In this document: positions 2,866-63,835 of the stretch, piece after piece
Numbering within the stretch: position 1 is the first letter of the stretch
Layout: each line of letters opens with the position of its first letter
DNA from: Bacteroidales bacterium
GTDB lineage: Bacteria; Bacteroidota; Bacteroidia; Bacteroidales; VadinHA17
Reading direction: 5' to 3'
Assembly: GCA_021371855.1 (NCBI GenBank)
Contig: JAJFVL010000061.1
Coordinates: 23,413-87,412 of the forward strand
DNA: 64,000 nt
The notes under the pieces: generated by a model
Told to the model about the DNA's origin: nothing
Database searches by the model: none
The model's input: only the letters and a program-made list of their open reading frames with translations
Position numbers and translations under genes: made by a program

Positions 2866-2876
2866 TTAAATATAAA

Positions 2877-4280: not shown

Positions 4281-4317
4281 AATAGAGGGAATTATCTAAA
4301 AGTTGAACATTACAATT

Positions 4318-5361: not shown

Positions 5362-5519
5362 AGTTCAGATTATTATGTATTAAAATCGATTATAAATAGT
5401 TTTTAAATTTAATGAAAAGTTTGAAGTGCCTAAAATTTAGAATACTTAAGTATTTTTTAAATCAAAATCACCATTTGCCGTTTTCCGGTCTCCGGTCTCC
5501 TGTTTCCGGTTCTCTTATA

Positions 5520-6554: not shown

Positions 6555-6645
6555 AATCTTATACCTTGTTTATTTTTATTGTGATTCATGGAATAAAAAA
6601 TAACGCTCAGGGTGTGAAGTAAAAAATAATTTGCGTGAGTCGTGT

Positions 6646-7329: not shown

Positions 7330-7347
7330 AAATAAATTATCAAATAA

Positions 7348-8622: not shown

Positions 8623-8731
8623 TTAAATATGCATCTATTGTCCTTCAAATTTAAAAGTTTTATGCGGAAAAGCGCGGATAAAAGTTTCATTTTACCAATT
8701 TTACTATCTTCGTAGTACATAAACATGCAAT

Positions 8732-14814: not shown

Positions 14815-14897
14815 GGAGGTTTGAGGTGTGAAGCGTGAGGTAACCGGCAACCATCAATCGGTAGTTAAGGATATTTGGCCATACATTATATATGAAA

Positions 14898-14930
14898 TAA
14901 AAAGGGGCTTTTTATACAGCCCCTTTTTTA
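14898..14930. terminator. Bidirectional rho-independent terminator between the convergent GH29 genes
   Basis: 'aaaaaggggct-ttttatac-agcccctttttt': GC stem ggggct/agcccc (14904-14909 / 14918-14923) flanked by an A-run and a T-run. Confidence 0.7.
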
Positions 14931-14940
14931 TTACATATAA

Positions 14941-46049: not shown

Positions 46050-49000
46050 TTATCTTATAATACTTATAACACCTGATCGTGGTTCGGATCCATTATTGAG
46101 ATGAAGAACATAATGATATGAATCTGTCGGTAAAAGTTTCCCTTTAAAAGTTCCATCCCATTCATTTGCTGAAATATTTTTTGTTTTGAATACTAATTTA
46201 CCCCATCTGTTAAAGACAAGAACTTCAGCATTGGGGAACAACCCAATATTCTTAATCTTCCAGGTATCATTGAATCCATCATTATTTGGAGTGATAATCT
46301 CAGATACTTCAAGGCAATTTTCCGAACCAACAAAACCAACTACAATATTCAGAGACGCTGCACATCCATTTTTGTCAGTAACGATCACGCTATATGCACC
46401 ATCAGGAATATTCTTTCTGTTCGGAGTTACTATTCCATCAGACCAGATTACATTATAAGGATTTGTCCCTCCCGTAATCGTAAGTGTAATGCTTCCATCA
46501 GCTTCACCCGGACAAGAAGCATCTTCCACCGTATGTGCAATTGAAAGCACTGGAGGTTCTGTGATAACTTCAGATACATTTATTACACAATTATTTGCAT
46601 CGCGGACAGTAATTATGTGTGTACCAGCTCCAAGATTACCAAATACACCAGAGGTCTGATATGCACCTCCATTCAGGCTATACTCATAAGGATAAGTGCC
46701 TCCGTCACCAAGTACCGATACAGATCCATTGGCTGATCCGGAACATGATGCATTATTCTTTGCAACAACTCTTCCTGTTAAGGCTGCTGTTGGTTGAGAA
46801 ATAGTAACTGTCATATCGAACGGGCAAAGATTTGCATCCTGAACCGTTATTAAATATGTTCCTGCAACCAGCGATTCAAATGTACCGGAAACCTGATATG
46901 ATCCTGACCCAAGCTTATAAGAGTATGGAGGTGTTCCTCCCGACCCGTTAACAGTAACTTTTCCTGTATTACTTCCATAACAAAGAATATTGGTCTGAGA
47001 AACGACTTCTCCTCCAACAACTGACAATGGTTGAGTTATTGTGACACTTACATCAGATGTTTTAAGAGTAGCATCCCTGATCGTAATAGTGTAATCTCCT
47101 GCAGCCAGTAAACCGAATATGCCCGATGACTGATATGTTGTCGCATCCAGACTGTACTCATAAGGTGCATAACCGCCCGAACCCTCTATGGTGAAACTTC
47201 CTGTTGCAGTACCAAAACAGGAAACATTGGTTTGTGAAGTAATGCTGCCTGTAAGTGCAAGTGGTGGGGTTACAGTTACCGTAAAGTTGCATATTGCTGA
47301 ATTACCTGCTGCGTCATAAACAATATATGAAACAGTTGTTACACCAGTGTTAAAAACATATGTCCCAACCTGATTAACCCCCGTAGCCGGCGATACGGCT
47401 GTCGTTGCTCCGGTCATTACCCACGTAAGAGTATTAACAACACAATTATCAGTAATAGTTGCATCAGGAACCTTAATTGTTGTATAACTAAATCCGGCAT
47501 CTTCAATTTGAGAAATATTAGCAGGGCATGTTATTGCAGGTGACTCATTATCAATCACAACTACATTAAAACTGCAGGTGGTTATTTTTCCGCAGTTATC
47601 TGTAGCAGTATACGACACAGGAGTTGTTCCTGTTGTAAAGAATTCACCTGAATTATGGGAACTTACGACACTCAATAATCCGCAATTATCCGTCACAGTA
47701 GGAAGAGTCCAGGTTACTAATGCACCACAACTACCGGGATTGTTATTTACTGTAATATCTACAGGACAACCGTTAATTACAGGGGCAGTCGTATCTGCTA
47801 TGTTTATGGTTTGACTTACATTTACACTATTACCATGAGCATCTGTTACTGTATATGTTCTTGTTATTACCAAAGGACAGGTTCCTGTTGAAACATCACT
47901 GCTTGTCACCATTAGTGCCACATCATTCGTACATGCATCTGTTATGGTTATGCCTCCTGGCAGAGCTTCCAATTCCGCAACGGAAGTTACAGCTGCCGGA
48001 GCAACACTTAAGGTACAACCTTCTATCGTTGCCTCTGTTAAAGAGCCAGCAACAACGGGTGATGAATTGTCACTTATAATTACATTCTGTGTCTGGATAG
48101 TTGTGTTGCCATTCCCATCATCATATGTCCATTTGACCACTGTCGTACCCTGTGTAGTGATCGGTAATACAGCATCACTCGTTACTGTTACCATACCAGC
48201 ACAGTTATCAGTTGCAGTAGGTTGCATTAAGGCAGTAACTGAGCAATCAGCAGTTACATCCGGTAAAGTAGTCAGATCAGGAACAGGATCAGTAATATCA
48301 GTTATTACTACATTCTGCGTCTGGGTAGCAATGTTGCCATTCCCATCATCGTATGTCCATGTGACTATTGTTGTACCTTGTTTGGTTATTGGTAATGCAG
48401 CATCGCTGGTTACAGTTACAGTGCCTGTACAGTTATCTGTTGCTGTTGGCTGCACCAATGCCGTTATTGAACACTCGGCTGTTATATCCGGCAAAGTAGC
48501 AAGATCCGGAACAGGAGCAATAAAATCATCTACAGTTACTGTGGTCGATGAAGAAGTTGCCTCCAGACATGCTCCGTTCTGTACAACTGCCCTGAATTGT
48601 GTTGTAGATACCAATACTCCTGAGATATATGTATCAGCCGTATTTATTATGTCGGTCCAGGTAGTACCATCCGGTGAGGACTGCCACTTAGTAACCGTTC
48701 CGGTATAGCCTGTTAATGTCATTATAGCACTCGTGCTTCCGGCACAGATAGATGTTCCTCCAGTTACTGTTCCACCTACACTGGCCACAGCTACAGTTAT
48801 TGTACCAGTCGAGGTCACGTTTCCACAACCTCCTGTCAATGTTACAGTGTATGGGAATGACCCGGAGACTGTCGGTGTGCCAGTTATCGTTACTACATTA
48901 CCAGCCCATGAACCAATTACACCTGCAGGTAAGCCTGTTATCGTTGCCCCGGTAGCTCCCGTTGAAGCAAAAGTGATGTCCGTCATAGCAGTGTTGATAC

Positions 49001-52000
49001 ATAAGGTCTGGTTATTTGTTCCTGCACCGGAGCTTAATGTGATCGTATTGTCTGACGTAACTGTTATAATACCTGATGAGGTAACTGTTCCGCAACCGCC
49101 TGTCAGTGTTACTGTGTATGGGAATGACCCGGAGGTTGTTGGTGTGCCACTTATCGTGACCACATTACCAGCCCATGAACCGCTTACACCTGAAGGTAAC
49201 CCTGTTACAGTTGCTCCGGTAGCTCCGGTTGTTGTAAACGTGATGCTTGTCATCGCTGTATTAATACAAAAGGTCTGGTTATTTGTTCCTGCTCCGGAGC
49301 TTAGTGCTATTGTATTGTCTGGCATCACTGTTATAATACCTGTCGAGGTAACTGTTCCACAACCGCCTGTCAGTGTTGCTGTGTATGGGAATGACCCGGA
49401 GGCTGTTGGTGTGCCACTTATCGTGACTACATTACCAGCCCATGAACCTGTTACACCTGAAGGTAACCCTGTTACCGTTGCTCCGGTAGCTCCGGTTGTT
49501 GTAAACGTGATGCTTGGCATCGCTGTATTAATACATAAGGTCTGGTTATTTGTTCCTGCTCCGGAGCTTAGTGCTATTGTATTGTCTGGTGTTACCGTGA
49601 TCTTACCTGTAACTATAGCCAGAGCGCATGTACCTGTTGAGGTTACTGTATAATTGAATGTACCCGAAGCTGAAGGTGTACCGTTTATTGTAAAAACCCC
49701 TGCATTATATGTACCAGTAACTCCTGCCGGTAAGCCGGTCACTCCTGCTCCTGTTCCTCCACCTGTTACGGAGTATGTAATATTAGTGATCGCTGTATTG
49801 ATACATTTAGTCTGTGCGTCAGTACCTGAGGCTGAATTCAACGATATGGCAGCATCAGGATTAACTGTAATTGTTCCATTTGTTGTTACTGTTCCACAAC
49901 CTCCGTTCAATGTTACCAGGTAATTAAATATACCTGAAACTGTCGGAGTGCCACTAATCGTTATAGAATTGGACAGCCAGTTACCTGTTACTCCAGAAGG
50001 TAATCCGGTGACAGTAGCGCTGATGGCTCCTGTTGTTGAATAAGTGATAGTCGTAAGAGGGGTGTTAATACATTTCGTCTGTGCATTGGTACCAACTGCC
50101 GAGGTTAATAATATTGTATTGACAGGGGTGACAGTAATTACACCGTTTACTGCAACAATACCGCAACCTCCTGTTAGAGTTATTGTATAGTTATAAGTAC
50201 CTGAAACTGTTGGAGTACCACTTATCGTCACTACATTCGATGCCCAAACACCAGATACTCCCAATGGTAAGCCATTGAAGGTAGCACCGGTGGCTCCGGT
50301 GGTCGCATACTTTATATCTGTGATCGCTGTATTAATGCATTTCGTTTGTGAATCCGTACCTCCTGCTGAAGTGAGTGTTATGGCATTTTTGGGCGAAACT
50401 ATGATCGTACCTGTCGAGGTAACCGTTCCGCAACCACCAGTCAATGTTACTGTGTATGGGAATGACCCTGAAGCTGTCGGTGTTCCACCTATCGTTACTA
50501 AATTACCAGTCCATGAACCTGTTACACCTGCCGGTAAACCTGTGACTGTCGCACCAGTTGCACCTGTCGTTGCAAACGTGATAACAGTCATTGCCGAGTT
50601 GATACATAAAGTCTGGTTATTTGTTCCTGCACCGGAGCTTAGTATGATGGTATTGTCTGGACTTACTGTTACATTGGCTGAAGCTGTAATTGAACCACAT
50701 CCACCAACCGGTATTGTTGTATAAGTAACAGTATAGTTTCCTGCAGTACTTGTACCAGGAGTAATCGCTCCAGTGGCTATGTCTATTGTCAATCCTGCCG
50801 GAGTCGCTGAGTAAGTCCCTCCTGTGTAAGCTCCTGTCCCTGTTAATGTCACATTCTGCACTCCTGCAGTGGTACACCATGATGAACCTACATATGAAAT
50901 TATTGCTGTAGGAAGTGGTGTAACAGTAGTCTTGATACCTGCAGAGGTCGAGGTACATCCACTTGCATTTGTAATTATTACATCTACTATCTGCCCATTT
51001 GTAAGTGAGGTTGTAGTATATGTTGCAGAACTGCTGTTTTGCACAATAGTCCCATTTACCCTGAACTCATAATTGGTTCCGCCACCTGCAGTGAAAGTGA
51101 CACTGCTCCCATCACATATAACATTGTCCGCATCTGAACTCGAAATTGTAGCTGAAGGTAAAGCGAAAACAGTATTGGTAATACCAGCAGATTGTGCACT
51201 GCAACTGCTTGCATTGGTAACTACCACATCAACTACCTGACCGTTGGTAAGTGCCGTAGTTGTAAATGAAGGGGATAAACCACTTTGTATACTTACTCCG
51301 TTAATCCGGAAGTTATATGTCGTTCCTCCACTTGCTGTAAATGTAACACTTGTGCCTGCACAGAAAGAGTTGTCTGCATCAGAACTTACTAAACCTGGAA
51401 CTGGTAAGGCAACTACTGTATTGGCAATACCAGCAGAAGTAGTACTGCACCCGCTTGCATTGGAAACAATCACATCAACTACCTGTCCGTTGGTAAGTGT
51501 TGATGTGGTATAGATTGGCGCTCCGCTGTTCTGAACACTTATTCCATCAATCCTGAAATCAAAGTTAGTTCCACCGCTTGCAGTGAAAACAACAGTTGTT
51601 CCTAAACAGAATGTATTGTCTGCGTCTGAACTGACCAGAGTTGCTGTCGGATATGCAATAACTGTGTTAGTTATCCCAGCTGAAGTAGCACTGCATCCGT
51701 TAATATTTGTTACTATCACATCAACTACCTGTCCGTTGGTAAAAGAAGAAGTAGTATAAGTTGCAGACGCGCCGTTCTGCACGCTTGATCCATTTACCCT
51801 GAAGTTATAGTTATTCCCCCCAATTGCAGTAAAAGTGACACTTGTTCCGGCGCAGAAAGTATTGTCAGCCTCAGAGCTGGACAGAGTTGGTACGGGCAAG
51901 GAATTTATAGTTACTGCTGTTGAGGTTGCGCCTGTACATCCGCTTCCATTTGTTACTGTAACTGATACATTACCGGTTGGTCCGGACCCCCATGTGACTG

Positions 52001-55000
52001 TTACATAATTATCGGTTGAGGCTCCTCCACCTGTGATATTACCACCTGTAACTGACCAACTGTGAGATGAATAAGTACTTGAGAGTGAATATGTGGAGAC
52101 AGATCCTGAACAAACTGATAAAGGTTCAACGCTAAATACAGGTGTTGGAAGTGCATTGATTGTTACTGTGTTCTCAACAGAAGACCCACATGTATTCCCC
52201 ATGAGATCAGTTTTTGTAACAGTTCCTACTACCAGACCCGAAGTGGCTCCAACATCCCATCTGACAGTGACTGTGTTGGTGTTGGTCGGAGAAAGGAATG
52301 TCCCGTTAGTAACATTCCAGGAATATGTTGCACCTGATGAAACAGTAACATTGTATATTTTCGTATCCCCGTCACAGGCATTTGAATTAACCTTTGTTAC
52401 ATTGTTAAATGCAAATCCACTCTTGTTCAATACAAACTGTGATGTAGCAGTACAACCATTTCCATCAGTCACAGTCAATCGGATATTGTACACTCCGTCA
52501 GGCATCAGGTTATTGAAGAATGGAGTTGCTGATGTACTTGTATTACTAAAGTGTATGAACGGGAAAATACCATTAAAGTATACAAAAGGATATGCACCGG
52601 CTTCAATAACACCCCAAAGATAAGTATATGATCCACTGCCACCTGAAACAGAGGCTTTATATGATGCAAAAGGAGAAGCAAGGTCGCAAGAGGATAACGA
52701 CATAGCATCAATTTTAAGTGTCGAGGAAACAGTTATCTGCACACTTTTTGACCTGGAATTTCCATGAGAATCCAAAGCAGTCAAAATGACGGTCCTTGTT
52801 CCCATATCTCCGCAATTGAATGTGCTGGGAGAAACAGAAAGAGTAACAGATCCACAATTATCGAATGAACCGTTATCAACATCTGATGGCAGTAAAGCTC
52901 CCGTGCCTGTTGGACCAAGAACAAGGTTAAATGTTTTGACATTTACAACAGGTTTGACAGTATCAAGAACTGTAACCAGTGATGTACAAGTCGATGAATT
53001 CGATGATGCATCAGTTCCGGTAAGAGTAACTGAAACAGGGGTTCCGATATCAGAACAGCTGAAAGCAGTCCTGTTTAGTGAAAAGTTAAGGACTGAAGTA
53101 CAATTATCAGTGGACCCATTATTAACTGCAGAGGCATTTAATATCCCGGTTCCTGATCCATCAAGATATAGGTTTACATCTTTGCATAAAACCACAGGAG
53201 GTGTTACATCCTGAGTTATAAAGAGTACCGTAACACTTTCTTTGTTGCCGCTTTCATCTGTGGCTTCAATAAGGATATTTGTCGAAGCAGCTCCGGTGAT
53301 AATTGAACCTGCAGCAGGAGTTTGTGTTTTTGTCATTGCCCCCGGAACAGTACAGTTATCTGATACAGTTAATGATGCAAGGAAATCAGGAACCAGAGCC
53401 TGACAGTTGTTATCAAGATTTTGAGTTTTATTGGCCGGAGTAGTTATAACCGGTTTTGCAGCATCTAAAACAGTCACATCAATATCGGAGCTTGAGCTGT
53501 TCCCTGCAATATCCGTAGCTGTTAAAGTTACCGTAGTTATACCAAGACCTACCATCGTACCGGCAGCAGGTGTCTGGGTGACAACAATGCTTCCAAGAGG
53601 AGTGCAGTTATCTGAGAATGTTGCAGCTATTGGAGGGATTGCAGCCTGACATCCGGCTCCGGAATTTATTACCGGAGGCGTGGGAAGGGTTATTACAGGG
53701 CCTTCGTTATCAGTAACAGTTACTGTAAATGAGCATGTTGCTGTATTTCCGCTTCCATCTGTAACAAGGAAGGTGTTTGTAGTGGTACCAACCGGAAAGA
53801 CTGATCCGCTTGCAAATCCTGTAGTCTGGGATGTGGTACTCCCGGAACAATTATCAATACCTACAGGTGTGGCATAATTTACTACTGCTCCGCAAACTCC
53901 GGGGTCTGTAAAGGTATTCCAATTCCCCGGACAAGTTATCACCGGCAAAGTATTATCGGCAACAGTTACAACTGATGTGCATGTCGAGCTCTTACCTGCG
54001 TTATCAGTAACAGTCAATATTACATTATTAGGTCCTATATCAATACACGAGAAATTATCAGGAGATACAGACAGGCTTGCAATTCCGTCAGGATCATTCG
54101 ATCCGTTATCTATATCTGCTCCGTTAATAGAAACAGTACCGGCAGAATTAAGACTAACAGTTATGTTTTTACAAATAGCTACCGGAGGATTATTATCAAT
54201 AACTGTAACTACTGCAATGCATGTAGAAATATTTCCACTATTATCAGTAATTGTCAGTGTAACATTATTGGGTCCTATATTGGAACTGTTGAAAGTATTC
54301 GGGGCAACAGATGCCGATGCAATACCGCAATTGTCAGTTGATCCGTTATCTACCTGGGCAGCAGTTATTGTTGCTGCTCCAAAGGCATCAAGGATTACTG
54401 ATATATTCTTGCATAGAGCAACAGGAGGCTCAGATTCATTTACAGTTATTGTAAAACTACAGGTAGATGTATTACCTGAAATATCGGTAAATGTGTAACT
54501 GACAGTCGTTACCCCTTGATTAAAATTACTGCCAGGAGCATTTGACCGTGTAGTATATGTCATTGCACCACCACAATTATCTATTGCTGTTGGTTCAGAC
54601 CAGGAGACTGCAGCAGAGCAGAGACTCGGGTCGCTGGATATAACAATATTCGCAGGACAATCAGATATAACCGGTGCAATTGCATCACCGATCTGGACAA
54701 TATAATCCGGAGTAGTATAAGAACATCCTGTTAATGTAACTGTTTCGGTAACAGCAACAGTTCCGGGACCAGCAGCTCCCCAATTTACCTGAATACTATT
54801 TCCCGAACCAATAAGGGTGCCACCAGTCACAGTCCAGTTATACGTATTACCCGGGACTAAAGGTGTCGAATAAATTACACCTGCAGCATTAGGACACACA
54901 CTATTATTCCCTGATATTGAAGGTGTTGGTGAAGTACCCAATATAATAGCCTGAGAACCTGCCATGTTATTGGTACAGGAAGTCGTAGTATTTGTTGCCA

Positions 55001-56501
55001 CAACAGTATAAACGCCAAATGTCTTATTATCCCATGTCAGTGATGATCCGGTGCCGGCGACAGGGGCATCTTCATCGATCCCATCATGCTTCAGCTGATA
55101 GTTAACGCCTGTTTCCGAACCACTCAGAGTTATGGTAACTCCAGGTCCGCTGCAATATGCATTAGATGAAGCACCTACATTGTAAGATGCAGGTAAAGGG
55201 TCAATTGTAATTACGGGAGAACCGCTCATGGTTTCTGTACACGTGAAAGCTGCAATTGAAGCGACAACTGAATATGTCCCAGCGGTTTTGTTATTCCATG
55301 TTAAAGATGAACCGGTGCCTGATACAGGATCCCCGTCATCAGAACCGTCAACCTTTAGCTGGTAATTAACACCTGTTTCTGAACCACTCAGGGTAATATC
55401 CACACCCGTGCTGCCGGAACAGTAAGAATTGGATGAAGCTGCTACATTGAAAATGGCAGGTTTACTGACCGTTGTCTGAATAGTTTTCTGATTTGAACAG
55501 GAGGTTGATGGATCAGTATAGGAATAAATGATATTGTGAGTTCCGACTCCGGCAGATGAAGGAGTAAATGTATTACCACTGATACCAGGGCCGCTGAATA
55601 CTCCACCTGTGGGACTTCCTGTAAGTGTCACAGGAGCATCATCGAGACAATAGTCAGAATTAAGTCCGCTGAAGTCAACGATTGGCAAAGGATAAATATC
55701 TACATATAGCTTACTGGAATCTGAAAGTCCGCAAGCAGGTACCTCCTCAACGCTTACTATTCCAGTAACACCGCCAGGAAGATCCCATGTAACATCCAGA
55801 TTATTTGTACCTCCGGTTACTCTTGTTGGTGTACCATAATGGACAATCCAGTTATAAGTTGAACCAGGGTGATCATCTACGGAATAATTAATTGTTGTGC
55901 CGGCACATACTTCAGAAGCAGAGGGAAGTATAGGAGAAGTTACCGCAGGAGGACAAGAAACACATGAAATGTTTGCAGCCCAGCCTGGCCTGTTAAACAA
56001 AGGATTAGATTTGAAATTAAAAGTTAAACAGGTACCGGAAGATGTAATTGAGAAGTCAGCAATAATCCCTCCCGTGTAAGAGCCAACAAGAGCAGAAGAT
56101 GTGTTTGGTCCGTCATATACAGATAATACATCTCCTGATCTTATGTCAACATTGGTAAAATTGAACCTTAAGTTTTCACCACTTAGAGAACAGAACGTAA
56201 CGGTATAATCCTTATTGTTTTCATACTCTCCAGTTGGACCGCCGCTGTCATAAAAGACTCCGCTGCATGTACTGACTGTCTGCCCGTTATAGTCCTTAAT
56301 ATTGTAATCTTGCGAAAAAAGATTTAACCCCAAAAATAAAAAGAATATAGAAATATTCAATTTTCTATATGATGCAGAAGTCCTTTCAATTTTAAAATAT
56401 CTACCAGGTATTGCATCTTTTAAAAAAAGCAAAAAATAGTCAAGAAAAATAAATATTGCTTTAGATACCAGGTTTCTAGGTTTCATATCTTTCAGGTTCA
56501 A
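46050..56501 (-). CDS. Giant (3483 aa) cell-surface adhesin with T9SS type-B ('gliding motility-associated') C-terminal domain; SprB-like
   Basis: The C-terminal 88 aa (46053-46316) 'EIITPNNDGFNDTWKIKNIGLFPNAEVLVFNRWGKLVFKT...WDGTFKGKLLPTDSYHYVL' match the type-B CTD. Four SprB repeats (about 46320-47265) follow the pattern 'C.G...G..T..GSGG..PYEYSL'. There are multiple HYR-like modules ('CPANIVISSDPSLCSAAVSWSEPTAIDNCGG...TCSFTITV') and many Ig-like repeats. The N-terminus has a CUB-like module ('TCSGVFYDSGGPTGEYENNKDYTVTF...GDVLSVYDGPN'). An alternative TTG start at 56361 gives a canonical signal peptide MNISIFFLFLGLNLFSQ. Confidence 0.9.
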   Translation of the reverse strand: MNLKDMKPRNLVSKAIFIFLDYFLLFLKDAIPGRYFKIERTSASYRKLNISIFFLFLGLNLFSQDYNIKDYNGQTVSTCSGVFYDSGGPTGEYENNKDYTVTFCSLSGENLRFNFTNVDIRSGDVLSVYDGPNTSSALVGSYTGGIIADFSITSSGTCLTFNFKSNPLFNRPGWAANISCVSCPPAVTSPILPSASEVCAGTTINYSVDDHPGSTYNWIVHYGTPTRVTGGTNNLDVTWDLPGGVTGIVSVEEVPACGLSDSSKLYVDIYPLPIVDFSGLNSDYCLDDAPVTLTGSPTGGVFSGPGISGNTFTPSSAGVGTHNIIYSYTDPSTSCSNQKTIQTTVSKPAIFNVAASSNSYCSGSTGVDITLSGSETGVNYQLKVDGSDDGDPVSGTGSSLTWNNKTAGTYSVVASIAAFTCTETMSGSPVITIDPLPASYNVGASSNAYCSGPGVTITLSGSETGVNYQLKHDGIDEDAPVAGTGSSLTWDNKTFGVYTVVATNTTTSCTNNMAGSQAIILGTSPTPSISGNNSVCPNAAGVIYSTPLVPGNTYNWTVTGGTLIGSGNSIQVNWGAAGPGTVAVTETVTLTGCSYTTPDYIVQIGDAIAPVISDCPANIVISSDPSLCSAAVSWSEPTAIDNCGGAMTYTTRSNAPGSNFNQGVTTVSYTFTDISGNTSTCSFTITVNESEPPVALCKNISVILDAFGAATITAAQVDNGSTDNCGIASASVAPNTFNSSNIGPNNVTLTITDNSGNISTCIAVVTVIDNNPPVAICKNITVSLNSAGTVSINGADIDNGSNDPDGIASLSVSPDNFSCIDIGPNNVILTVTDNAGKSSTCTSVVTVADNTLPVITCPGNWNTFTDPGVCGAVVNYATPVGIDNCSGSTTSQTTGFASGSVFPVGTTTNTFLVTDGSGNTATCSFTVTVTDNEGPVITLPTPPVINSGAGCQAAIPPIAATFSDNCTPLGSIVVTQTPAAGTMVGLGITTVTLTATDIAGNSSSSDIDVTVLDAAKPVITTPANKTQNLDNNCQALVPDFLASLTVSDNCTVPGAMTKTQTPAAGSIITGAASTNILIEATDESGNKESVTVLFITQDVTPPVVLCKDVNLYLDGSGTGILNASAVNNGSTDNCTSVLNFSLNRTAFSCSDIGTPVSVTLTGTDASSNSSTCTSLVTVLDTVKPVVNVKTFNLVLGPTGTGALLPSDVDNGSFDNCGSVTLSVSPSTFNCGDMGTRTVILTALDSHGNSRSKSVQITVSSTLKIDAMSLSSCDLASPFASYKASVSGGSGSYTYLWGVIEAGAYPFVYFNGIFPFIHFSNTSTSATPFFNNLMPDGVYNIRLTVTDGNGCTATSQFVLNKSGFAFNNVTKVNSNACDGDTKIYNVTVSSGATYSWNVTNGTFLSPTNTNTVTVRWDVGATSGLVVGTVTKTDLMGNTCGSSVENTVTINALPTPVFSVEPLSVCSGSVSTYSLSSTYSSHSWSVTGGNITGGGASTDNYVTVTWGSGPTGNVSVTVTNGSGCTGATSTAVTINSLPVPTLSSSEADNTFCAGTSVTFTAIGGNNYNFRVNGSSVQNGASATYTTSSFTNGQVVDVIVTNINGCSATSAGITNTVIAYPTATLVSSDADNTFCLGTTVVFTASGGTNFDFRIDGISVQNSGAPIYTTSTLTNGQVVDVIVSNASGCSTTSAGIANTVVALPVPGLVSSDADNSFCAGTSVTFTASGGTTYNFRINGVSIQSGLSPSFTTTALTNGQVVDVVVTNASSCSAQSAGITNTVFALPSATISSSDADNVICDGSSVTFTAGGGTNYEFRVNGTIVQNSSSATYTTTSLTNGQIVDVIITNASGCTSTSAGIKTTVTPLPTAIISYVGSSWCTTAGVQNVTLTGTGAYTGGTYSATPAGLTIDIATGAITPGTSTAGNYTVTYTTIPVGGCGSITASANVTVSPDNTIILSSGAGTNNQTLCINSAMTVITFATTGATGATVTGLPAGVTGSWTGNLVTIGGTPTASGSFPYTVTLTGGCGTVTSTGTIIVSPKNAITLTSAGGTDSQTKCINTAITDIKYATTGATGATFNGLPLGVSGVWASNVVTISGTPTVSGTYNYTITLTGGCGIVAVNGVITVTPVNTILLTSAVGTNAQTKCINTPLTTITYSTTGAISATVTGLPSGVTGNWLSNSITISGTPTVSGIFNYLVTLNGGCGTVTTNGTITVNPDAAISLNSASGTDAQTKCINTAITNITYSVTGGGTGAGVTGLPAGVTGTYNAGVFTINGTPSASGTFNYTVTSTGTCALAIVTGKITVTPDNTIALSSGAGTNNQTLCINTAMPSITFTTTGATGATVTGLPSGVTGSWAGNVVTISGTPTASGSFPYTATLTGGCGTVTSTGIITVMPDNTIALSSGAGTNNQTFCINTAMTSITFTTTGATGATVTGLPSGVSGSWAGNVVTISGTPTTSGSFPYTVTLTGGCGTVTSSGIITVTSDNTITLSSGAGTNNQTLCINTAMTDITFASTGATGATITGLPAGVIGSWAGNVVTITGTPTVSGSFPYTVTLTGGCGNVTSTGTITVAVASVGGTVTGGTSICAGSTSAIMTLTGYTGTVTKWQSSPDGTTWTDIINTADTYISGVLVSTTQFRAVVQNGACLEATSSSTTVTVDDFIAPVPDLATLPDITAECSITALVQPTATDNCTGTVTVTSDAALPITKQGTTIVTWTYDDGNGNIATQTQNVVITDITDPVPDLTTLPDVTADCSVTALMQPTATDNCAGMVTVTSDAVLPITTQGTTVVKWTYDDGNGNTTIQTQNVIISDNSSPVVAGSLTEATIEGCTLSVAPAAVTSVAELEALPGGITITDACTNDVALMVTSSDVSTGTCPLVITRTYTVTDAHGNSVNVSQTINIADTTAPVINGCPVDITVNNNPGSCGALVTWTLPTVTDNCGLLSVVSSHNSGEFFTTGTTPVSYTATDNCGKITTCSFNVVVIDNESPAITCPANISQIEDAGFSYTTIKVPDATITDNCVVNTLTWVMTGATTAVSPATGVNQVGTYVFNTGVTTVSYIVYDAAGNSAICNFTVTVTPPLALTGSITSQTNVSCFGTATGSFTIEGSGGYAPYEYSLDATTYQSSGIFGLLAAGDYTITIRDATLKTSDVSVTITQPLSVVGGEVVSQTNILCYGSNTGKVTVNGSGGTPPYSYKLGSGSYQVSGTFESLVAGTYLITVQDANLCPFDMTVTISQPTAALTGRVVAKNNASCSGSANGSVSVLGDGGTYPYEYSLNGGAYQTSGVFGNLGAGTHIITVRDANNCVINVSEVITEPPVLSIAHTVEDASCPGEADGSITLTITGGTNPYNVIWSDGIVTPNRKNIPDGAYSVIVTDKNGCAASLNIVVGFVGSENCLEVSEIITPNNDGFNDTWKIKNIGLFPNAEVLVFNRWGKLVFKTKNISANEWDGTFKGKLLPTDSYHYVLHLNNGSEPRSGVISIIR
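48790..50670. repeat. Seven tandem ~276-bp (about 92-aa) coding repeats inside the 3483-aa gene
   Basis: Protein units follow '(S/T)PDNTI.LSSGAGTNNQTLCINTAM..ITF.TTGATGATVTGLP.GV.GSW.GN.VTI.GTPT.SGSFPYT.TLTGGCG.VTS.G.I.V'. Units 1, 5, 6 and 7 are near-identical and units 2-4 are diverged. The periodicity is mirrored in the antisense ORFs 48733..49653 and 50275..50724. Boundaries are approximate. Confidence 0.8.
50925..51905. repeat. Four tandem ~243-bp (81-aa) coding repeats inside the 3483-aa gene
   Basis: Units follow 'LP.P.L.SSDADN.FC.GTSVTFTA.GG.NY.FR.NG.S.QN......YTT..LTNGQVVDV.VTN..GCS.TSAGI.NTV'. Boundaries are approximate. Confidence 0.75.
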
Positions 56502-57117: not shown

Positions 57118-57192
57118 GGGCGATTAGCTCAGCTGGTTCAGAGCATCTGCCTTACAAGCAGAGGGTCGGGGGTTCGAATCCCTCATCGCCCA
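57118..57192 (+). tRNA. tRNA-Val (anticodon TAC)
   Basis: GGGCGATTAGCTCAGCTGGTTCAGAGCATCTGCCTTACAAGCAGAGGGTCGGGGGTTCGAATCCCTCATCGCCCA. Acceptor GGGCGAT/ATCGCCC, anticodon stem TCTGC/GCAGA with loop CTTACAA, T-loop TTCGAAT. CCA is not encoded. Confidence 0.9.
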
Positions 57193-57200
57193 CAACCTAA

Positions 57201-57816: not shown

Positions 57817-58728
57817 TTATTTTTCATTTCTGACTATTTTCATAATATCAAAAAGTCTCAATCCCAGTGATATCTGGTGACTGCCAAATGTGTTTAATGC
57901 AACATTAGAGCTCAGGTTATAAGAATAATTCAAAAGAACTCCTTTGTAAATCTCTCCCCCGAAGCCAAGCCCGTATATACCGCCGGTTCTAAAGACTAAT
58001 GTTCCCCAGAAACGATTTTCCCATATTACTGCAGGAGCTATCTCCAGCTGTGACGGGACATGCTCTCCACCCCTGAAAATAAGTGTCGGTATAACCGACC
58101 ATTGTTTATTTATATCATAGGTATACGAGGCATGAATAAGATAGTTTTTGAATGGTCTGTATGAAAGATCTGTATCGCGATACTTTGCTGTTCCAAACAT
58201 TATATTTGAGAATAAAACTCCTGCTTCCACCTGTTTGTACCTGTAAAGTACACTTACATCAGTGGCAAATTTGATCTTCGATTTCTCTTTGCCATATCTC
58301 AAAACGGCATCATCCACATAATCAGGATCGTTGTAATATTTTGAAAGGTCGATAGAATTCCGGAAAAATCCAGCAGAAAGCCCAAAATTCAATAAATGGT
58401 CCGTACCCGGTTTTACTTCATAAGTATATGTTCCAAGGATAAGAGTCTGTTTAAAGATATCTGTTTTATCGTATACAAACCGTCCTCCGACACCGACTTT
58501 TTCCTTATACCTGTCGCTGTAACTCATCTGGATTGTCGATGGACCACCTTCAATTCCAGTCCAATCGGACCTGTAATCCAAAAACAAAGTTTTGCTGTTG
58601 TATATTCCTGCATATGCAGGCGATAAACTGAAACGATTTACATTGTATCCTTCCATGAAAGGAAATTGCTGTGCATTTATTGTTCCTGTTATCATCAGTA
58701 ACAATGCAAAATATATTGACTTCTTCAT
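57817..58728 (-). CDS. PorP/SprF-family type IX secretion system outer-membrane protein (second copy)
   Basis: 'MKKSIYFALLLMITGTINAQQFPFMEGYNVNRFSLSPAYAGIYNSKTLFLDYRSDWTGIEGGPSTIQMSYS' is the family signature. The track ORF extends to 58776, but the signal peptide begins at the Met encoded at 58728. Confidence 0.85.
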   Translation of the reverse strand: MKKSIYFALLLMITGTINAQQFPFMEGYNVNRFSLSPAYAGIYNSKTLFLDYRSDWTGIEGGPSTIQMSYSDRYKEKVGVGGRFVYDKTDIFKQTLILGTYTYEVKPGTDHLLNFGLSAGFFRNSIDLSKYYNDPDYVDDAVLRYGKEKSKIKFATDVSVLYRYKQVEAGVLFSNIMFGTAKYRDTDLSYRPFKNYLIHASYTYDINKQWSVIPTLIFRGGEHVPSQLEIAPAVIWENRFWGTLVFRTGGIYGLGFGGEIYKGVLLNYSYNLSSNVALNTFGSHQISLGLRLFDIMKIVRNEK

Positions 58729-58823
58729 TTCTTTGTAATTTTTTTTCACTTTATTCTCTTTTCTTAATGAATTCATCAGATTTTATTCCTCCACACTAAT
58801 TCACAGGAGGGAGAAAAAATCAT

Positions 58824-61800
58824 CTACCTTACTATGTTCACTACCCCATTGATGGTCCCCCGTTTTTCTGATTTAATAATATAATAGTACGAAGCAGATG
58901 GAAGTAAGTTACCTTTCCAGGTACCATCCCAGTCGTTCTTATAGCTGCGCGATTCATAAACCTTTTTGCCAAAACGATTGTATATAGTGACCGATATATT
59001 ACCATACTCTTCTATATCCGGTATGTACCAGTAGTCGTTCATGCCATCGCTATTAGGTGTGAATAACGACATTATATTGTCAAAGGTAGGCTTCGATTCT
59101 GCAGTCAATGTCACTTCTGTTGCAGGATTCCAGTTTTGATCACCATTCTGGCTGGCAGTAATTGTAAAATCACCCTCTCTTTTGATTGAGAGAACATCGT
59201 TATTTATGATGCAAATCGAAGGATCTGATGCTTCAAAACTTACTGTAAGTCCACTTGAGGCTGTTGCTACCAACATGTAATCCTGGGTAGCTCTTAAGTT
59301 ATCGGGCAATGATTCGAACCTGATAAACTGGTCAGCTTTATTTATTATTAGATCACCCTCAATATACTTAAAGTCGTAATTTTCATCTTCTGCACCGGAA
59401 ACCATAATATAATAAGTGCCTGCATTCGAACCTTTCAAAGCATCAGTTTGTGCCACAGGTTGAATATTAAGAGCACCCTGATCCTGGCCTAGAACGAAAC
59501 CTGAATACGATACTGTCAAAACCGGATTATCATTACCATAAGTCTTACTTTTATCATCGGCAGTTATAGTAAGCAACGCTTTTTTAACTTCAAAATTCCC
59601 GTTAACAATAATTAAATCATAATTGTTATCCGATCCGCCATTTAAGACAACAGGATAATTGCCTACATTGCTGCTTAACACGACACCAGTAGAAGCTACA
59701 ACAGCTTCATCAAGAACCGATGCATCTTCCGAATTCCTGAATCCATTATATGAAATAGTCAGATCAGGATTCTCAGAACCATATACCTTGGTTTTGTCAT
59801 CAGCCTTTACTGTCAGGGCAGTTTTGGTTACAGTCATATCTGCAGGTATATAGTTAAAAGAGTAATTTTCATCCGCTCCTTCTGAAACAGTTATAGCGTT
59901 TACATATATATTAGCCGGACTTGTAAGTGTAACTGTTGTACCTGCTTTAGGCAGAGTTGTCAATACTGATTCATTTTCATTATTCTCCCATCCGCTGTAG
60001 GTGAATGTCAGCTCAGGATCAGGAGCGCCATATTCTTTCGTCTTACTATCAGCTGTTACAGTCAATACTTTTTTGGAGATATCCAGGCTTCCATCAATAA
60101 AACTTATGTCATAGTTTACCGAGGTTACACCACTGACGGTAATGACATAACCTGTTCCTGCATTGACTGCTGATGCTGCTGTTCCGCTATATGCCAATGC
60201 TCCACCGAGAACACTCTCAGTTTCGCTGTTTACAAACCCACTGTATGTTACCGTGAAAGAAGTGTAAACAACTCCGTCATACGTCTTGCTCTTGTTCTCT
60301 GCTGTTATTGTCAACGGAGCCTTGCTGATATCAAGTGTGCCGTTATTAAATGTAATTGAATAGTTGTCTGATGTCAGACCTTCCGGTGTAATAACATAAC
60401 CAGTGCCTGCATTGACTGCTGATGCTGCTGTACCGCTATATGCCAATGCACCATCAAGAACACTCTCTGTTTCGCTGTTTACAAACCCACTGTATGTTAC
60501 CGTGAAAGGAGTGTAAACAACTCCGTCATACGTCTTGCTCTTGTTCTCTGCAGTTATTGTCAACGGAGCCTTGTTAACCGTAAATTCATTCTGAACATCC
60601 GATGCTGCAAAATAAGTATCATTTCCAGCCTGTGAAGCTGTTATAAAAGAAGTTCCTGCTCCGACAATTGTGACCATGTTGCCTGATACTGTAGCTGCAC
60701 TGGGATTAGAACTCGAATAAGTAACAGGAAGGCCGGATGTTGACGATGCTGTCAGATAGAAGGCATCATCTCCGTATGTTTTGTCTCCCAGAATGTCAAA
60801 AGTAATAGTCTGGTCAAGCTTTGTTGTTGTTACTGCAGTAGAAGATGAGTAAAAGCTAACACCTTCGGGAAGGAGAGCACGGAAACGGTAAAAATATTGC
60901 GTAACAGGATCAAGGCCTGAAACGATGAATGCAGTAACATTATCTACATCTTTATTATTATATCCTGAAACAATATTTGCAAAAGAATTATCTGTTGCAA
61001 CATCAAGGAAATATTTTGTTGCACCAGAAACTGTATTCCAATTTGCTCTGAAAGAAGTCCCTGATATGTCTGTTGCTGCTGTTGTTGAAGGCACAGAAAA
61101 AGTAACTGTAACGTCGTCAGACACATCCGGCACCGGGTCTCCAGCCATACCTCCATATTCAACCACATAACCGTCGAGGATATTCGAAGAACTAAGATCA
61201 TTCCATTTACCGTTTGTTAAGAACTGCGCATAATCTTCATTTCCCCCTGAATTATTAGGTTCGCCGGTGTTCCAGTTGGTATACGAGAGTACGCTGCCAT
61301 TTTCAGGTCCTTCGATCCATTTCCATGTACCCTCTGAAGCTTCATCACTTGCACCTAACCAACCCTGTCCAAGCAATTTTGACAAGCAGAATGCACTTTC
61401 TTCTTCAGAAGTTATAGTTACCAGATAACCCTGCAAACCAAAGTACTTTCTATTAGCTGCTATTGTTTTAGCCTCCGGCCATGTAATGCCCGGATTAGTC
61501 ACATACTCATAGTAGTGCCCGTTACCGGAAAACGGCAATGCAGTGTTCAGACTGATTTTAATATTTCGGGAAGAAGCATTTGGAATAGCCTCAGTGTTAG
61601 AATAGGTTACTTTTCTTATTATTGCCTGGTATGTTGCCACATCAGCTGATCCGGTAATGGATAATATTCCTGTTGAAGGGCTAAAAGAATATGAAATAGT
61701 GCCAATGGTCCCGCTGGCAGATCCATCTATACCAAGTATATCCTGACCAGAGACATAATTACCGTTTATTGAAACATAAGCGCCTTCTAAGGCAGAACCA

Positions 61801-63392
61801 GTTACCGTAGCATTAGAGGCTATATAGACAAGCGCATTAGGTGCAACTGTTGTTCCTCCGTTACTGCCTGAAATAGTAGTAGATATAGTTGTAAAAGATA
61901 ATTCGTTTCCATAACCTGTGCCCACAGAATTTGTAGCATAAGCTCTTACATAATAGGTCGTACCTTCTGACAGATCTGTTAATGAGCTTGTAAATGAACC
62001 TGTTCCTGAACCATCAGCAGAATGACTTCCTGAGACTGTCGGATTTGATGAAGTACTCCAGCAGACTCCTCTTGCAATCACCGATTGTCCACCATCATCA
62101 CTCACACTTCCCCCTGATGTTGCAGTATTAGTTGAGATATTTGTCACTGTTCCGGTGGAAAGTACCGGTACAGTGTATGCATTTGTAGTAAATTGAACCT
62201 TTGCAATAGATGAAAACTCAGGAGTCGCGTCTTCTGAAACAAAATAGAGATCATATGATGTTCCTGCTGTAAGATTTGTAAGGCTGAATTGCTTCTCCAC
62301 ATTTGCTGACATTAAACCTGAACCAGAGCTTATTACAACTACAGAGCCATAATTAACCCCGTTCTTTATTTCAGATGCTGTTGGTGCAGTTGAGTTACGG
62401 GGAACAACCATCCAATAACCTGTACCTGCAGTTGTAGTTTTAGCTTTGAAAGTTGCGGTAGTATAAGTTATATCGCTGACAGCTCCGCTTGCAGCTGCAA
62501 CATCGGCAATAATCGTTTCAAGGTCAGCCAGTTTACCGGCAGCATAATACCAACAAAACTCATCACTTTCTCCACTGGCCAGATCATTCATCCTGACATA
62601 AAAACCATACGAGCCATCATTTGTCAGTTCAATACTACTTGTCTGGGGATTCTGGTTGGTAACATTGGTCCAGTAACAGCAAGAATTTATAATATTATTC
62701 CCTTTTGAGGAATTTGTATAAAACAAGACACCTTCATCTGCAGTGGATATTCTTAATGCCAGAGCCCTGTCAGCTGCATTCGTCAGCTTGACAAACGCAC
62801 CATCAACCAGGTTTCCCTTCTCTTTTTTGGGTGCATCAGTTCCACCCACATAATCATCTCTGGTACCGACCCAATATCTCACATTATTTATTGTACTTCC
62901 GCTTGTGTTCTTAACATTTGTGGTAATCTTAATAAAAGACTTATCTTGTCCAAGTTCATAGGTATTTTTAATTTCCAGTGTTAAACTGTTTATTGTGATA
63001 GTTCCGGTAGAAATAATTGTTCCATACCCATTCGGACTTGTTGTTGTAATATAACCAGATAAATCAATAACCTGCCCAGTCATTGTAGGATTGTTGGAAA
63101 GAGATCCATTGAGGTTCCATTCATTTGTTCCATCACCATCTATAGCAAAAGTGTTGTCAAGAGGATAAGAAGAATAAGTAAGCTTTCGCCAGAGAGCTAA
63201 AGTGGAGTTATAATAGAAAGGTTGCTGCATGTTTCCATTAGAATTGATGGAATTTTCAGATCCGTTTCCAGAGCGTATAAGATTATTATTAAGAACAGTC
63301 TGACCTAAAATATCTTGAGTAAAATAGATAAGGCCACATAAAATTAATGCAGATAGTAAAACACACCTGAATTTGTTCATAAGATATTTCAT
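58824..63392 (-). CDS. Large (1522 aa) cell-surface protein with C-type lectin-like domain, Fn3/Ig-like modules, five MBG-type repeats and T9SS type-B C-terminal domain
   Basis: CTD (58827-59072): 'LFTPNSDGMNDYWYIPDIEEYGNISVTIYNRFGKKVYES...WDGTWKGNLLPSASYYYII'. Lectin block: 'GHYYEYVTNPGITWPEAK...GYLVTITSEEE..F...GWLGASDEASEGTWKWIEGPE......YTNWNTGEPNN...EDYAQFL.NGKWNDL'. Five 'K..LT(I/V)TA..K.K.Y(G/D)......T..YSGF...E..SVL' repeats. Signal peptide 'VLLSALILCGLIYF'. Confidence 0.9.
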   Translation of the reverse strand: MKYLMNKFRCVLLSALILCGLIYFTQDILGQTVLNNNLIRSGNGSENSINSNGNMQQPFYYNSTLALWRKLTYSSYPLDNTFAIDGDGTNEWNLNGSLSNNPTMTGQVIDLSGYITTTSPNGYGTIISTGTITINSLTLEIKNTYELGQDKSFIKITTNVKNTSGSTINNVRYWVGTRDDYVGGTDAPKKEKGNLVDGAFVKLTNAADRALALRISTADEGVLFYTNSSKGNNIINSCCYWTNVTNQNPQTSSIELTNDGSYGFYVRMNDLASGESDEFCWYYAAGKLADLETIIADVAAASGAVSDITYTTATFKAKTTTAGTGYWMVVPRNSTAPTASEIKNGVNYGSVVVISSGSGLMSANVEKQFSLTNLTAGTSYDLYFVSEDATPEFSSIAKVQFTTNAYTVPVLSTGTVTNISTNTATSGGSVSDDGGQSVIARGVCWSTSSNPTVSGSHSADGSGTGSFTSSLTDLSEGTTYYVRAYATNSVGTGYGNELSFTTISTTISGSNGGTTVAPNALVYIASNATVTGSALEGAYVSINGNYVSGQDILGIDGSASGTIGTISYSFSPSTGILSITGSADVATYQAIIRKVTYSNTEAIPNASSRNIKISLNTALPFSGNGHYYEYVTNPGITWPEAKTIAANRKYFGLQGYLVTITSEEESAFCLSKLLGQGWLGASDEASEGTWKWIEGPENGSVLSYTNWNTGEPNNSGGNEDYAQFLTNGKWNDLSSSNILDGYVVEYGGMAGDPVPDVSDDVTVTFSVPSTTAATDISGTSFRANWNTVSGATKYFLDVATDNSFANIVSGYNNKDVDNVTAFIVSGLDPVTQYFYRFRALLPEGVSFYSSSTAVTTTKLDQTITFDILGDKTYGDDAFYLTASSTSGLPVTYSSSNPSAATVSGNMVTIVGAGTSFITASQAGNDTYFAASDVQNEFTVNKAPLTITAENKSKTYDGVVYTPFTVTYSGFVNSETESVLDGALAYSGTAASAVNAGTGYVITPEGLTSDNYSITFNNGTLDISKAPLTITAENKSKTYDGVVYTSFTVTYSGFVNSETESVLGGALAYSGTAASAVNAGTGYVITVSGVTSVNYDISFIDGSLDISKKVLTVTADSKTKEYGAPDPELTFTYSGWENNENESVLTTLPKAGTTVTLTSPANIYVNAITVSEGADENYSFNYIPADMTVTKTALTVKADDKTKVYGSENPDLTISYNGFRNSEDASVLDEAVVASTGVVLSSNVGNYPVVLNGGSDNNYDLIIVNGNFEVKKALLTITADDKSKTYGNDNPVLTVSYSGFVLGQDQGALNIQPVAQTDALKGSNAGTYYIMVSGAEDENYDFKYIEGDLIINKADQFIRFESLPDNLRATQDYMLVATASSGLTVSFEASDPSICIINNDVLSIKREGDFTITASQNGDQNWNPATEVTLTAESKPTFDNIMSLFTPNSDGMNDYWYIPDIEEYGNISVTIYNRFGKKVYESRSYKNDWDGTWKGNLLPSASYYYIIKSEKRGTINGVVNIVR
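59340..60580. repeat. Five tandem ~249-bp (83-aa) MBG-like coding repeats; the first two (60141-60575) are near-identical at DNA level
   Basis: cattgactgctgatgctgctgt...caacggagcctt occurs at 60161 and again at 60410 (offset 249 bp), with about ten scattered substitutions. Confidence 0.8.
61150..61525 (-). other. C-type lectin-like domain region of the 1522-aa protein (EPN at 61254-61262, WND at 61197-61205)
   Basis: EPN is encoded by attaggttc (reverse complement GAA CCT AAT). WND is encoded by atcattcca (reverse complement TGG AAT GAT). The surrounding 'WIGL-like' 'GWLGASD' and 'EGTWKW' blocks are in canonical CTLD order. Confidence 0.7.
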
Positions 63393-63835
63393 AATCTACC
63401 TCCCTGAATTTTAGTATCTGTAACATTCCACGCATCACCTGATTTTTGGAGTTCAAGAATTACTCTTTGGGTAGCAATATAACCTGAAACAGGATAATGA
63501 TACACAAAGTCAACTTTAGCTGAGTTTTGTTCGATATTAAGTTCCCAAAACAGAAAATAATTATTTATAGTACCTGATGCAAGCTGGTCTTTATTAATAA
63601 ACTGTACTCTCATCCCTGACTTATAAGCTTCTGTATTAGCAGGGAATGAAACACCGTGTTGCAGAACATAAATTCCGGAAAAGCTCCCATTGGAATTTCG
63701 TGGAATATATTGCTGTAATTCAGGCAGATCAATGCATTTCTGCAGAATTTTAGCCATGTCACCGGAATTTTGAGCATTTACTTTAATTGTAAAGCCCAGA
63801 ATCACCAAAAAAATCAGAGTAAAAAGTTTTTTCAT
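63389..63835 (-). CDS. Small secreted protein of unknown function, translationally coupled to the 1522-aa adhesin gene
   Basis: 148 aa with signal peptide 'MKKLFTLIFLVILGFTIKVNAQ'. Its stop overlaps the adhesin start (4-bp ATGA-type overlap at 63389-63392). No recognisable family. Confidence 0.6.
   Translation of the reverse strand: MKKLFTLIFLVILGFTIKVNAQNSGDMAKILQKCIDLPELQQYIPRNSNGSFSGIYVLQHGVSFPANTEAYKSGMRVQFINKDQLASGTINNYFLFWELNIEQNSAKVDFVYHYPVSGYIATQRVILELQKSGDAWNVTDTKIQGGRL

Follow-up and report, generated by a model that had tools for sequence, protein, structure and literature searches.

The best described relatives of the domain treated in this paper are the carbohydrate-recognition domains (CRDs) of animal C-type lectins, among them the mannose-binding proteins MBP-A and MBP-C, CD23, DC-SIGN and langerin, in which the domain is part of a collectin or of a type II receptor. 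In bacteria, lectin-like proteins of 190 aa from Proteobacteria consist of such a domain alone and are sorted by the PEP-CTERM/exosortase route. This paper deals with a C-type lectin-like domain (CTLD) encoded in a stretch of 64,000 nucleotides from a Bacteroidales bacterium (assembly GCA_021371855.1, contig JAJFVL010000061.1, positions 23,413 to 87,412), which is called the window here and to which the coordinates refer. The CTLD lies inside a putative adhesin of 1522 aa, a cargo protein of a type IX secretion system (T9SS) with a type-B C-terminal domain. Compared to the animal CRDs, the window CTLD has the same fold (TM-score up to 0.92, root-mean-square deviation (rmsd) 1.7 Å) at 24-30% identity, an identical EPN-x5-E-x10-WND spacing, a WLGA motif resembling WIGL and residues at all ligand positions of calcium sites 1 and 2; however, it is devoid of the four cysteines, contains GHYYEY and GYVVEYGG motifs specific to its own clade and is located within a bacterial T9SS adhesin. 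The PEP-CTERM proteins belong to the same clade (40-55% identity, with the cysteine-free signature and invariant EPN and WND motifs), but are single-domain proteins, whereas the window CTLD is one cassette of the 1522-aa protein.

On the side of secretion, the host protein has a type-B C-terminal domain and its gene is followed directly by a PorP/SprF gene, as is the case for SprB-SprF of Flavobacterium johnsoniae, and it was shown that type-B cargo binds its cognate PorP/SprF-like protein and needs it both to be secreted and to be anchored at the surface (PMC9143113, PMC12618676). Gliding genes were not seen in the window, which is part of an uncultured Bacteroidales metagenome-assembled genome (MAG). 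RemA of F. johnsoniae, a T9SS-secreted lectin adhesin of the cell surface, is a precedent for a T9SS surface lectin, but has a type-A tail in place of the type-B tail found here. The lectin domain of RemA is not known to be of the C-type. A functional analogue which has been studied, likewise distal in a long repetitive adhesin, is represented by the PA14 domains of the RTX adhesins MpIBP and MhLap, which bind vicinal sugar hydroxyls in a calcium-dependent manner (PMC8092209, PMC6650083). These adhesins differ from the window protein in having a PA14 beta-sandwich instead of a CTLD, in using a type I secretion system and in belonging to another phylum; for the window CTLD, sugar binding is predicted.

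The gene and the domain were located as follows.

58824-63392, minus strand: adhesin gene, coding for the 1522-aa multidomain T9SS type-B cargo protein, a putative adhesin (list of open reading frames, Pfam, NCBIfam)
61152-61520, minus strand: CTLD, aa 625-747, of the cysteine-free bacterial type (Pfam, phmmer, AlphaFold2, Foldseek)

An initial annotation, made from the nucleotide sequence, had described a CTLD with the canonical order of sequence blocks at 61150-61525, without giving the strand. All of the residues quoted there were found, in the order quoted, in the 1522-aa open reading frame (ORF) of the minus strand, where GHYYEYV...GYVVEYG corresponds to aa 625-747 and to 61152-61520, within a few bases of the position given; on the plus strand this stretch has no open frame and is riddled with stops. 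The segment is a genuine CTLD, with a match far beyond chance, since three independent lines of evidence agree. A scan with the Pfam model Lectin_C (PF00059), which had been suggested as a check, matched aa 653-736 with 40.4 bits, above the gathering score of 22.6 (E 5.4e-10). A phmmer search against all sequences of the PDB resulted in 118 matches to the CTLD, headed by CD23 and MBP at E about 1e-12, and the top matches (E 1e-12 to 1e-9) are sugar-binding animal CRDs, namely CD23, human MBP, rat MBP-A and MBP-C, DC-SIGN and DC-SIGNR, and langerin. For the structure prediction and the superposition on MBP, also suggested beforehand, an AlphaFold2 model was calculated for aa 612-760 with 96 homologues (mean pLDDT 92.8, pTM 0.87). 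Its predicted elements (E16-25, H27-36, E42-46, H52-61, E66-71, E110-113, E119-122 and E128-135; E for strand, H for helix) follow each other in the model in the order beta-alpha-beta-alpha-beta...beta, as a CTLD should have. Foldseek identified 429 matches to this model in the PDB with E<=1e-3, and each of the 50 that were listed is an animal C-type lectin domain; for MBP-C with methyl fucoside (1rdi) and MBP-C with Man-a1,3-Man (1kza) the TM-score was 0.92 and the rmsd 1.7 Å over 122 columns.

In the mannose-binding proteins, the calcium ions are held by two sets of ligands, the counterparts of which were located in the window CTLD by alignment.

61332-61346, minus strand: site-1 segment WLGASDEASEG, D683 to E687, aligned to the Ca2+ site-1 ligands of MBP
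61233-61262, minus strand: stretch from EPN to D720, aa 711-720, with an ungapped alignment to MBP-C, human MBP and CD23
61197-61205, minus strand: WND, aa 730-732, with N731 and D732 as site-2 ligands by alignment

The EPN motif itself comprises aa 711-713 (61254-61262, minus strand), and a stretch of 29 residues that includes both EPN and WND was aligned without gaps to MBP-C and equally well to human MBP and CD23. From the alignment to mannose-binding proteins, E711, N713, E719, N731 and D732 are predicted as ligands of site 2, and D683, E687, N714 and D720 as ligands of site 1. In the numbering of rat MBP-A, the former correspond to E185, N187, E193, N205 and D206, and the latter to D161, E165, D188 and D194. 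The numbering of the MBP-A ligands is said to follow Weis et al. 1992. The asparagine at the position of MBP-A D188 (N714) is also present in MBP-C and in human MBP.

Conservation was analysed in an alignment of 97 sequences, made up of the window CTLD and 96 bacterial homologues. The residues of site 2 and the adjoining motif residues were retained in nearly all of them (E711 in 96, P712 in 97, N713 in 95, E719 in 94, W730 in 97, N731 in 91 and D732 in 96 of the 97 sequences), and at site 1 the D683 position was conserved in 81 and the E687 position in 72. The mean column identity of the alignment is 16%, and most positions outside the ligands vary. Since the ligand positions are near-invariant in such a variable alignment, the pattern indicates selection on the predicted calcium and sugar site. 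The retention of EPN and WND, as proposed initially, thus agrees both with the gap-free alignment to the MBPs and with the conservation in the 97 sequences. As a best inference, the CTLD would bind sugars of the mannose, N-acetylglucosamine (GlcNAc) or fucose type in a Ca2+-dependent manner.

The description of the domain as canonical holds for the order of blocks and for EPN and WND, but not for the disulfides, which had not been mentioned: all four canonical cysteines of a CTLD are missing, so that neither of the two hallmark disulfides (C1-C4 and C2-C3) is present. The C2 position is occupied by Y721, the residue after D720, and C3 by S735, while the C4 region reads YVVEY; Y721 and S735 correspond to C195 and C209 of MBP-A. 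The sole cysteine of the window CTLD is located in helix 2, at a non-canonical place. The lack of cysteines is common among the homologues, since 73 of the 97 aligned bacterial CTLDs contain no cysteine in the domain. The clade has the signature GHYYE...EPNN...WND...GYVVEYGG, of which the N-terminal GHYYE(Y) and the C-terminal GYVVEYGG are specific to the bacterial clade. Because the test for the four cysteines failed and the homologues share this lack, the domain is placed in the Pfam Lectin_C/CTLD fold as a member of a bacterial cysteine-free clade and in no metazoan group. In one related CTLD, from the locus L002 described below (positions 6904-7350 of that locus), the canonical C2 position is occupied by a cysteine (NEDC) and C3 is not; the helix-2 cysteine is shared with the window CTLD.

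The nearest solved structures are all from animals, which raised the possibility that the CTLD is foreign to this genome, either by recent transfer from an animal, by contamination of the assembly with eukaryotic DNA, or as the CLec-type target of a diversity-generating retroelement (DGR); DGR targets are reported to have CLec folds (PMC11661182). Against this, the CTLD is in frame inside a bacterial ORF with a T9SS C-terminal domain, its identity to many bacterial domains is 45-77% compared to 19-30% for the animal structures listed, and GHYYE, the lack of cysteines and GYVVEYGG are common to the window CTLD and its bacterial relatives. A blastn comparison of the CTLD DNA to the window matched only the CTLD itself, revealing no template repeat, and no reverse transcriptase was identified among the window ORFs scanned. 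A DGR target was ruled out by the lack of a template repeat and a second CTLD copy in the window and of a reverse transcriptase in the scanned ORFs, and contamination or recent animal transfer by the in-frame bacterial domains and by bacterial CTLDs being closer than animal ones. A foreign origin in any of these forms is considered exceedingly improbable.

The cysteine-free CTLD module is found in thousands of bacterial surface proteins, and the domain of the window is an ordinary member, far less unusual than the initial annotation implied. When 1.84 billion representative proteins were searched exhaustively with phmmer, the CTLD obtained 22,683 matches with E<=1e-3, 6,724 with E<=1e-10 and 582 with E<=1e-30, animal proteins included. 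A word-indexed search identified Lectin_C proteins of about 190 aa, many of them PEP-CTERM-anchored, the named ones being from Proteobacteria. Such proteins are called 'lectin-like protein' or 'Lectin C-type domain' at NCBI and JGI, and the bacterial CTLD clade is already recognised by the databases through these names and through Pfam. In NCBIfam, no model was found to match the CTLD or the N-terminal head of the adhesin. The closest domains, with 57-69% identity, are part of varied bacterial surface proteins, in which the partner domains are Ig_7 (CHU_C-associated), FN3, GEVED, cadherins, Big_9, Cu_amine_oxidN1, DUF11 and a type-A T9SS tail. By a home-made hidden Markov model (HMM), the type-B C-terminal domain was detected in 3 of the top 150 CTLD proteins, including the window protein, a list which is skewed to multi-copy proteins and metagenomic fragments and gives no estimate of frequency. 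Several metagenomic adhesin fragments (P0001, P0004 and P0008) contain the CTLD paired with the same preceding beta-rich module as in the window protein. [quoted passage not shown]

For the clade as a whole, a broader proposal is made tentatively: its members might be true calcium-dependent lectins, forming a portable glycan-binding cassette across T9SS type-A and type-B, PEP-CTERM/exosortase and Gram-positive wall proteins, which folds without the disulfides thought essential in animal C-type lectins, and which, rather than having been acquired recently from animals, could be an ancient lineage that is sister to the metazoan C-type lectins or gave rise to them. The interest of the finding attaches to this cysteine-free clade, with regard to disulfide-free folding and to the origin of C-type lectins, more than to the present locus. 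If the window CTLD binds sugars as predicted, a disulfide-free domain of this kind would offer a practical scaffold for bacterial expression and would help to trace the origin of C-type lectins.

The protein that carries the CTLD is identical to MCE5348065.1 (library entry P0133), annotated as 'gliding motility-associated C-terminal domain-containing protein [Bacteroidales bacterium]'. Its remaining features and the genes of its cassette, from the N-terminus on, are the following.

63300-63392, minus strand: putative Sec signal peptide, aa 1-31, MKYLMNKFRCVLLSALILCGLIYFTQDILGQ, read by eye
62478-63299, minus strand: N-terminal head, aa about 32-305, predicted as a beta-supersandwich (AlphaFold2), with no Pfam or NCBIfam family
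aa about 310-403 of the adhesin: domain resembling fibronectin type III (FN3)
61869-62183, minus strand: domain resembling immunoglobulin (Ig) or FN3 domains, aa 404-508, which resembles the N-terminal part of the arabinanase BT0360 (NCBIfam NF049889)
61521-61868, minus strand: beta-rich module right before the CTLD, aa 509-624, ...ILSITGSADVATYQAIIRKVTYSN..., 63% identical in L002
60837-61094, minus strand: FN3 domain, aa 767-852 (Pfam fn3, E 9e-10, 39.1 bits)
aa 862-932 of the adhesin: weakly MBG-like segment
59352-60563, minus strand: five tandem MBG_2 (YGX-type) stalk repeats, aa 944-1347 (Pfam MBG_2, E 4e-80, 5 stretches)
58827-59075, minus strand: T9SS type-B C-terminal sorting domain, aa 1440-1522 (TIGR04131, CHU_C)
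57817-58776, minus strand: outer-membrane protein of the PorP/SprF family (319 aa), its gene 47 nt downstream from that of the adhesin (TIGR03519)
63389-63835, minus strand: 148-aa ORF with a signal-peptide-like N-terminus, its stop codon overlapping the adhesin start codon by 4 nt

By inspection, the N-terminus has the typical look of a signal peptide, with a basic n-region followed by the hydrophobic core LLSALILCGLIYF. The assignment to T9SS type-B surface proteins, which the initial annotation had made, is backed by TIGR04131 (aa 1440-1521, 73.1 bits at a cut-off of 35) and CHU_C (79.9 bits, cut-off 27), and by the adjoining PorP/SprF gene, the product of which reached 157.6 bits for TIGR03519 (cut-off 90.55). 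The order of adhesin and PorP/SprF gene is also found in the two related loci L001 and L002. The partial match to NF049889 (E 1.7e-10) is far under the cut-off of the family and shows likeness at the level of the domain only. The boundaries of the MBG_2 repeats were obtained with an iterated HMM. For the 148-aa ORF no family match was obtained in the scans; an ORF at the equivalent position is 49% identical in L001 and 20% identical in L002, and the ORF may be a third component of the adhesin cassette.

The N-terminal head was modelled together with the following domain (AlphaFold2 of aa 31-410, pLDDT 92.9) and showed a beta-supersandwich with weak fold matches (TM-score about 0.4-0.6) to non-catalytic beta-sandwich domains of GH38 and GH94 and to the P1 domain of YidC. 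Among 8,000 candidates scored, 342 proteins matched the head with E<=1e-3. The head may represent an undescribed family of ligand-binding domains. Its relatives include proteins of about 433 aa from marine Flavobacteriaceae, as well as proteins in which its partners are SprB, HYR, IPTL-CTERM, OmpA-like or InlB-repeat domains, and it has invariant residues (W, G, T, D, D, G, D and P, among others).

From these data, a mode of action can be proposed. The adhesin would be exported by Sec, carried over the outer membrane by its type-B C-terminal domain via the T9SS, and retained at the surface by the PorP/SprF-like product of the gene that directly follows. The stalk of five MBG repeats and several Ig/FN3 domains would present the N-terminal head and the CTLD. 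The latter is predicted to hold two calcium ions, at site 2 (E711, N713, E719, N731 and D732) and at site 1 (D683, E687, N714 and D720), of which the site-2 ion would be coordinated, as in the mannose-binding proteins, by a pair of neighbouring equatorial hydroxyls on a sugar of the mannose, GlcNAc, glucose or fucose type. The outcome would be a calcium-dependent, low-affinity and avidity-driven hold on a glycan surface, which may be an exopolysaccharide matrix, other cells, or plant or host glycans. The view favoured here, that a genuine cysteine-free bacterial CTLD serves as one cassette in the outward half of a T9SS type-B surface protein in Ca2+-dependent attachment to glycans, is considered probable. 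Each of the computational tests applied speaks for the core of the initial annotation, a CTLD with intact EPN and WND motifs on a T9SS type-B surface protein. If it is true, environmental Bacteroidales and other bacteria would have an animal-style calcium-dependent grip on mannose-, GlcNAc- or fucose-type glycans. The locus itself shows no new kind of system, and its analysis mainly improves the annotation, as the public record names the adhesin only by its secretion tail.

Genes related to the adhesin gene were collected by a scan of one genome per species, and 30 related loci were found, all in uncultured Bacteroidales or related MAGs. L002 is the only one among them with a CTLD, which is 77% identical to that of the window, keeps every ligand and scored 42.4 bits on Lectin_C; it is part of a protein of 2284 aa with 14 MBG repeats. 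Between the window protein and that of L002, the CTLD is the best-conserved passenger domain, with 77% identity compared to 36-63% for the other domains compared, and a 19-residue linker is 74% identical. The closest full-length relative, L001, is 70% identical over aa 1-503, but in it an Ig_7 domain takes the place of the beta-rich module, the CTLD and the FN3 domain. The pair of L001 and the window is a clean case of cassette exchange inside an adhesin. Because L002 has the CTLD while the closest relative L001 is without it, the CTLD is a shuffled, portable cassette, and this lineage of Bacteroidales has it inserted in a T9SS type-B adhesin. The gene of L001 (6001-10233) looks split into ORFs at 6001-9120 and 9604-10233, pointing to a frameshift or to an error in the assembly.

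Several points weigh against glycan attachment by the window CTLD. The calcium ligands were assigned only through sequence alignment and the global superposition of a model (rmsd 1.7 Å), and with both disulfides lacking, the stability and loop geometry of the domain rest on prediction. The EPN motif is a reliable guide to the type of sugar in vertebrates, and less so in other groups. In full-text searches of the literature, no experimental, structural or biochemical study of a bacterial Pfam Lectin_C domain or of the clade was found. The neighbourhood of the adhesin gene gives no pointer to a particular glycan, and the protein family does not need the CTLD, since its closest full-length relative is without it. 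The last two points would also fit a calcium-binding domain with the CTLD fold that either recognises something other than a carbohydrate (a protein, for instance, or a surface that is mineral or ice-like) or serves only as a calcium-rigidified spacer of the stalk: the module is dispensable in L001 and no sugar-related genes adjoin the adhesin gene. Many CTLDs are known to bind proteins, lipids or inorganic surfaces (Zelensky & Gready 2005, as cited in PMC8092209). However, non-sugar CTLDs typically lose the EPN and WND ligands, while all of these are kept here and near-invariant in the 97 sequences, and the best matches in sequence and fold are sugar-binding CRDs, several of which were solved with bound sugar. 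A non-sugar role is hence regarded as unlikely, and binding of a glycan through site 2 is preferred.

The initial annotation had also drawn attention to fucosidases in this genome region. Two genes for alpha-L-fucosidases of glycoside hydrolase family 29 (GH29) are indeed present.

13519-14814, plus strand: GH29 alpha-L-fucosidase
14941-16305, minus strand: GH29 alpha-L-fucosidase

They are convergent and at least 42 kb distant from the adhesin gene. In between are the genes for malate dehydrogenase (mdh), an ABC transporter and LptF/G, ribBA and fmt, a two-component system, panB, dnaK, xseA, the gene for the CCA-adding enzyme, three tRNAs and a second adhesin cassette. Because of this distance, with housekeeping genes and tRNAs between, the fucosidases tell nothing about the ligand of the CTLD and were discarded as evidence on it: the enzymes are in the window, but show no linkage to the adhesin gene. 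Among the roughly 40 larger window ORFs that were annotated, no SusC/D-type locus was seen. The direct neighbours of the adhesin gene are the small 148-aa ORF, the PorP/SprF gene, a tRNA-Val and the second adhesin cassette, with no adjoining SusC/SusD or glycoside hydrolase gene.

These data also bear on a role in foraging, in which the CTLD would act as a carbohydrate-binding module and tether a (possibly fucosylated) polysaccharide for enzymes such as GH29. Besides the two fucosidases, the beta-supersandwich fold of the head, known from non-catalytic domains of glycoside hydrolases and phosphorylases, and the resemblance of aa 404-508 to the N-terminus of an arabinanase would be consistent with such a function. 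However, the GH29 genes are not only remote and behind housekeeping genes and tRNAs, but also partly on the other strand, neither a SusC/D pair nor a catalytic domain is present in or beside the adhesin, and the head has only weak matches in fold (TM-score about 0.4). Foraging is accordingly judged to be quite improbable, and attachment to a glycan surface is retained as the preferred function.

The second T9SS type-B cassette next to the adhesin gene consists of a cargo gene at 46050-56501 (minus strand) and of its own PorP/SprF gene at 45026-46021 (minus strand, 238 bits). The cargo protein is about 3480 aa long, contains a CUB domain and several HYR domains and has a CHU_C tail. Like the CTLD, CUB and HYR are domains best known from animal extracellular proteins. 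The tRNA-Val (anticodon TAC, 57118-57193, plus strand) is located on the strand opposite to the two adhesin cassettes, in the 1.3 kb that separate them.

At the far end of the window, a sugar-metabolism cluster (1468-7329 and 13519-16305) codes for two proteins of the 3-keto-disaccharide hydrolase family, a GFO/IDH/MocA oxidoreductase, an enolase-superfamily protein, a xylose-isomerase-like TIM-barrel protein, a DUF6340 protein and the two GH29 enzymes. A 682-aa ORF at 11426-13474 has no family match, and a 270-aa protein with a Fib_succ_major domain is encoded at 18692-19504 (minus strand). Finally, a DUF362 protein with a type-A T9SS tail (Por_Secre_tail) was identified at 32737-34326 (minus strand), and since it carries this tail, the window encodes both type-A and type-B T9SS cargo.

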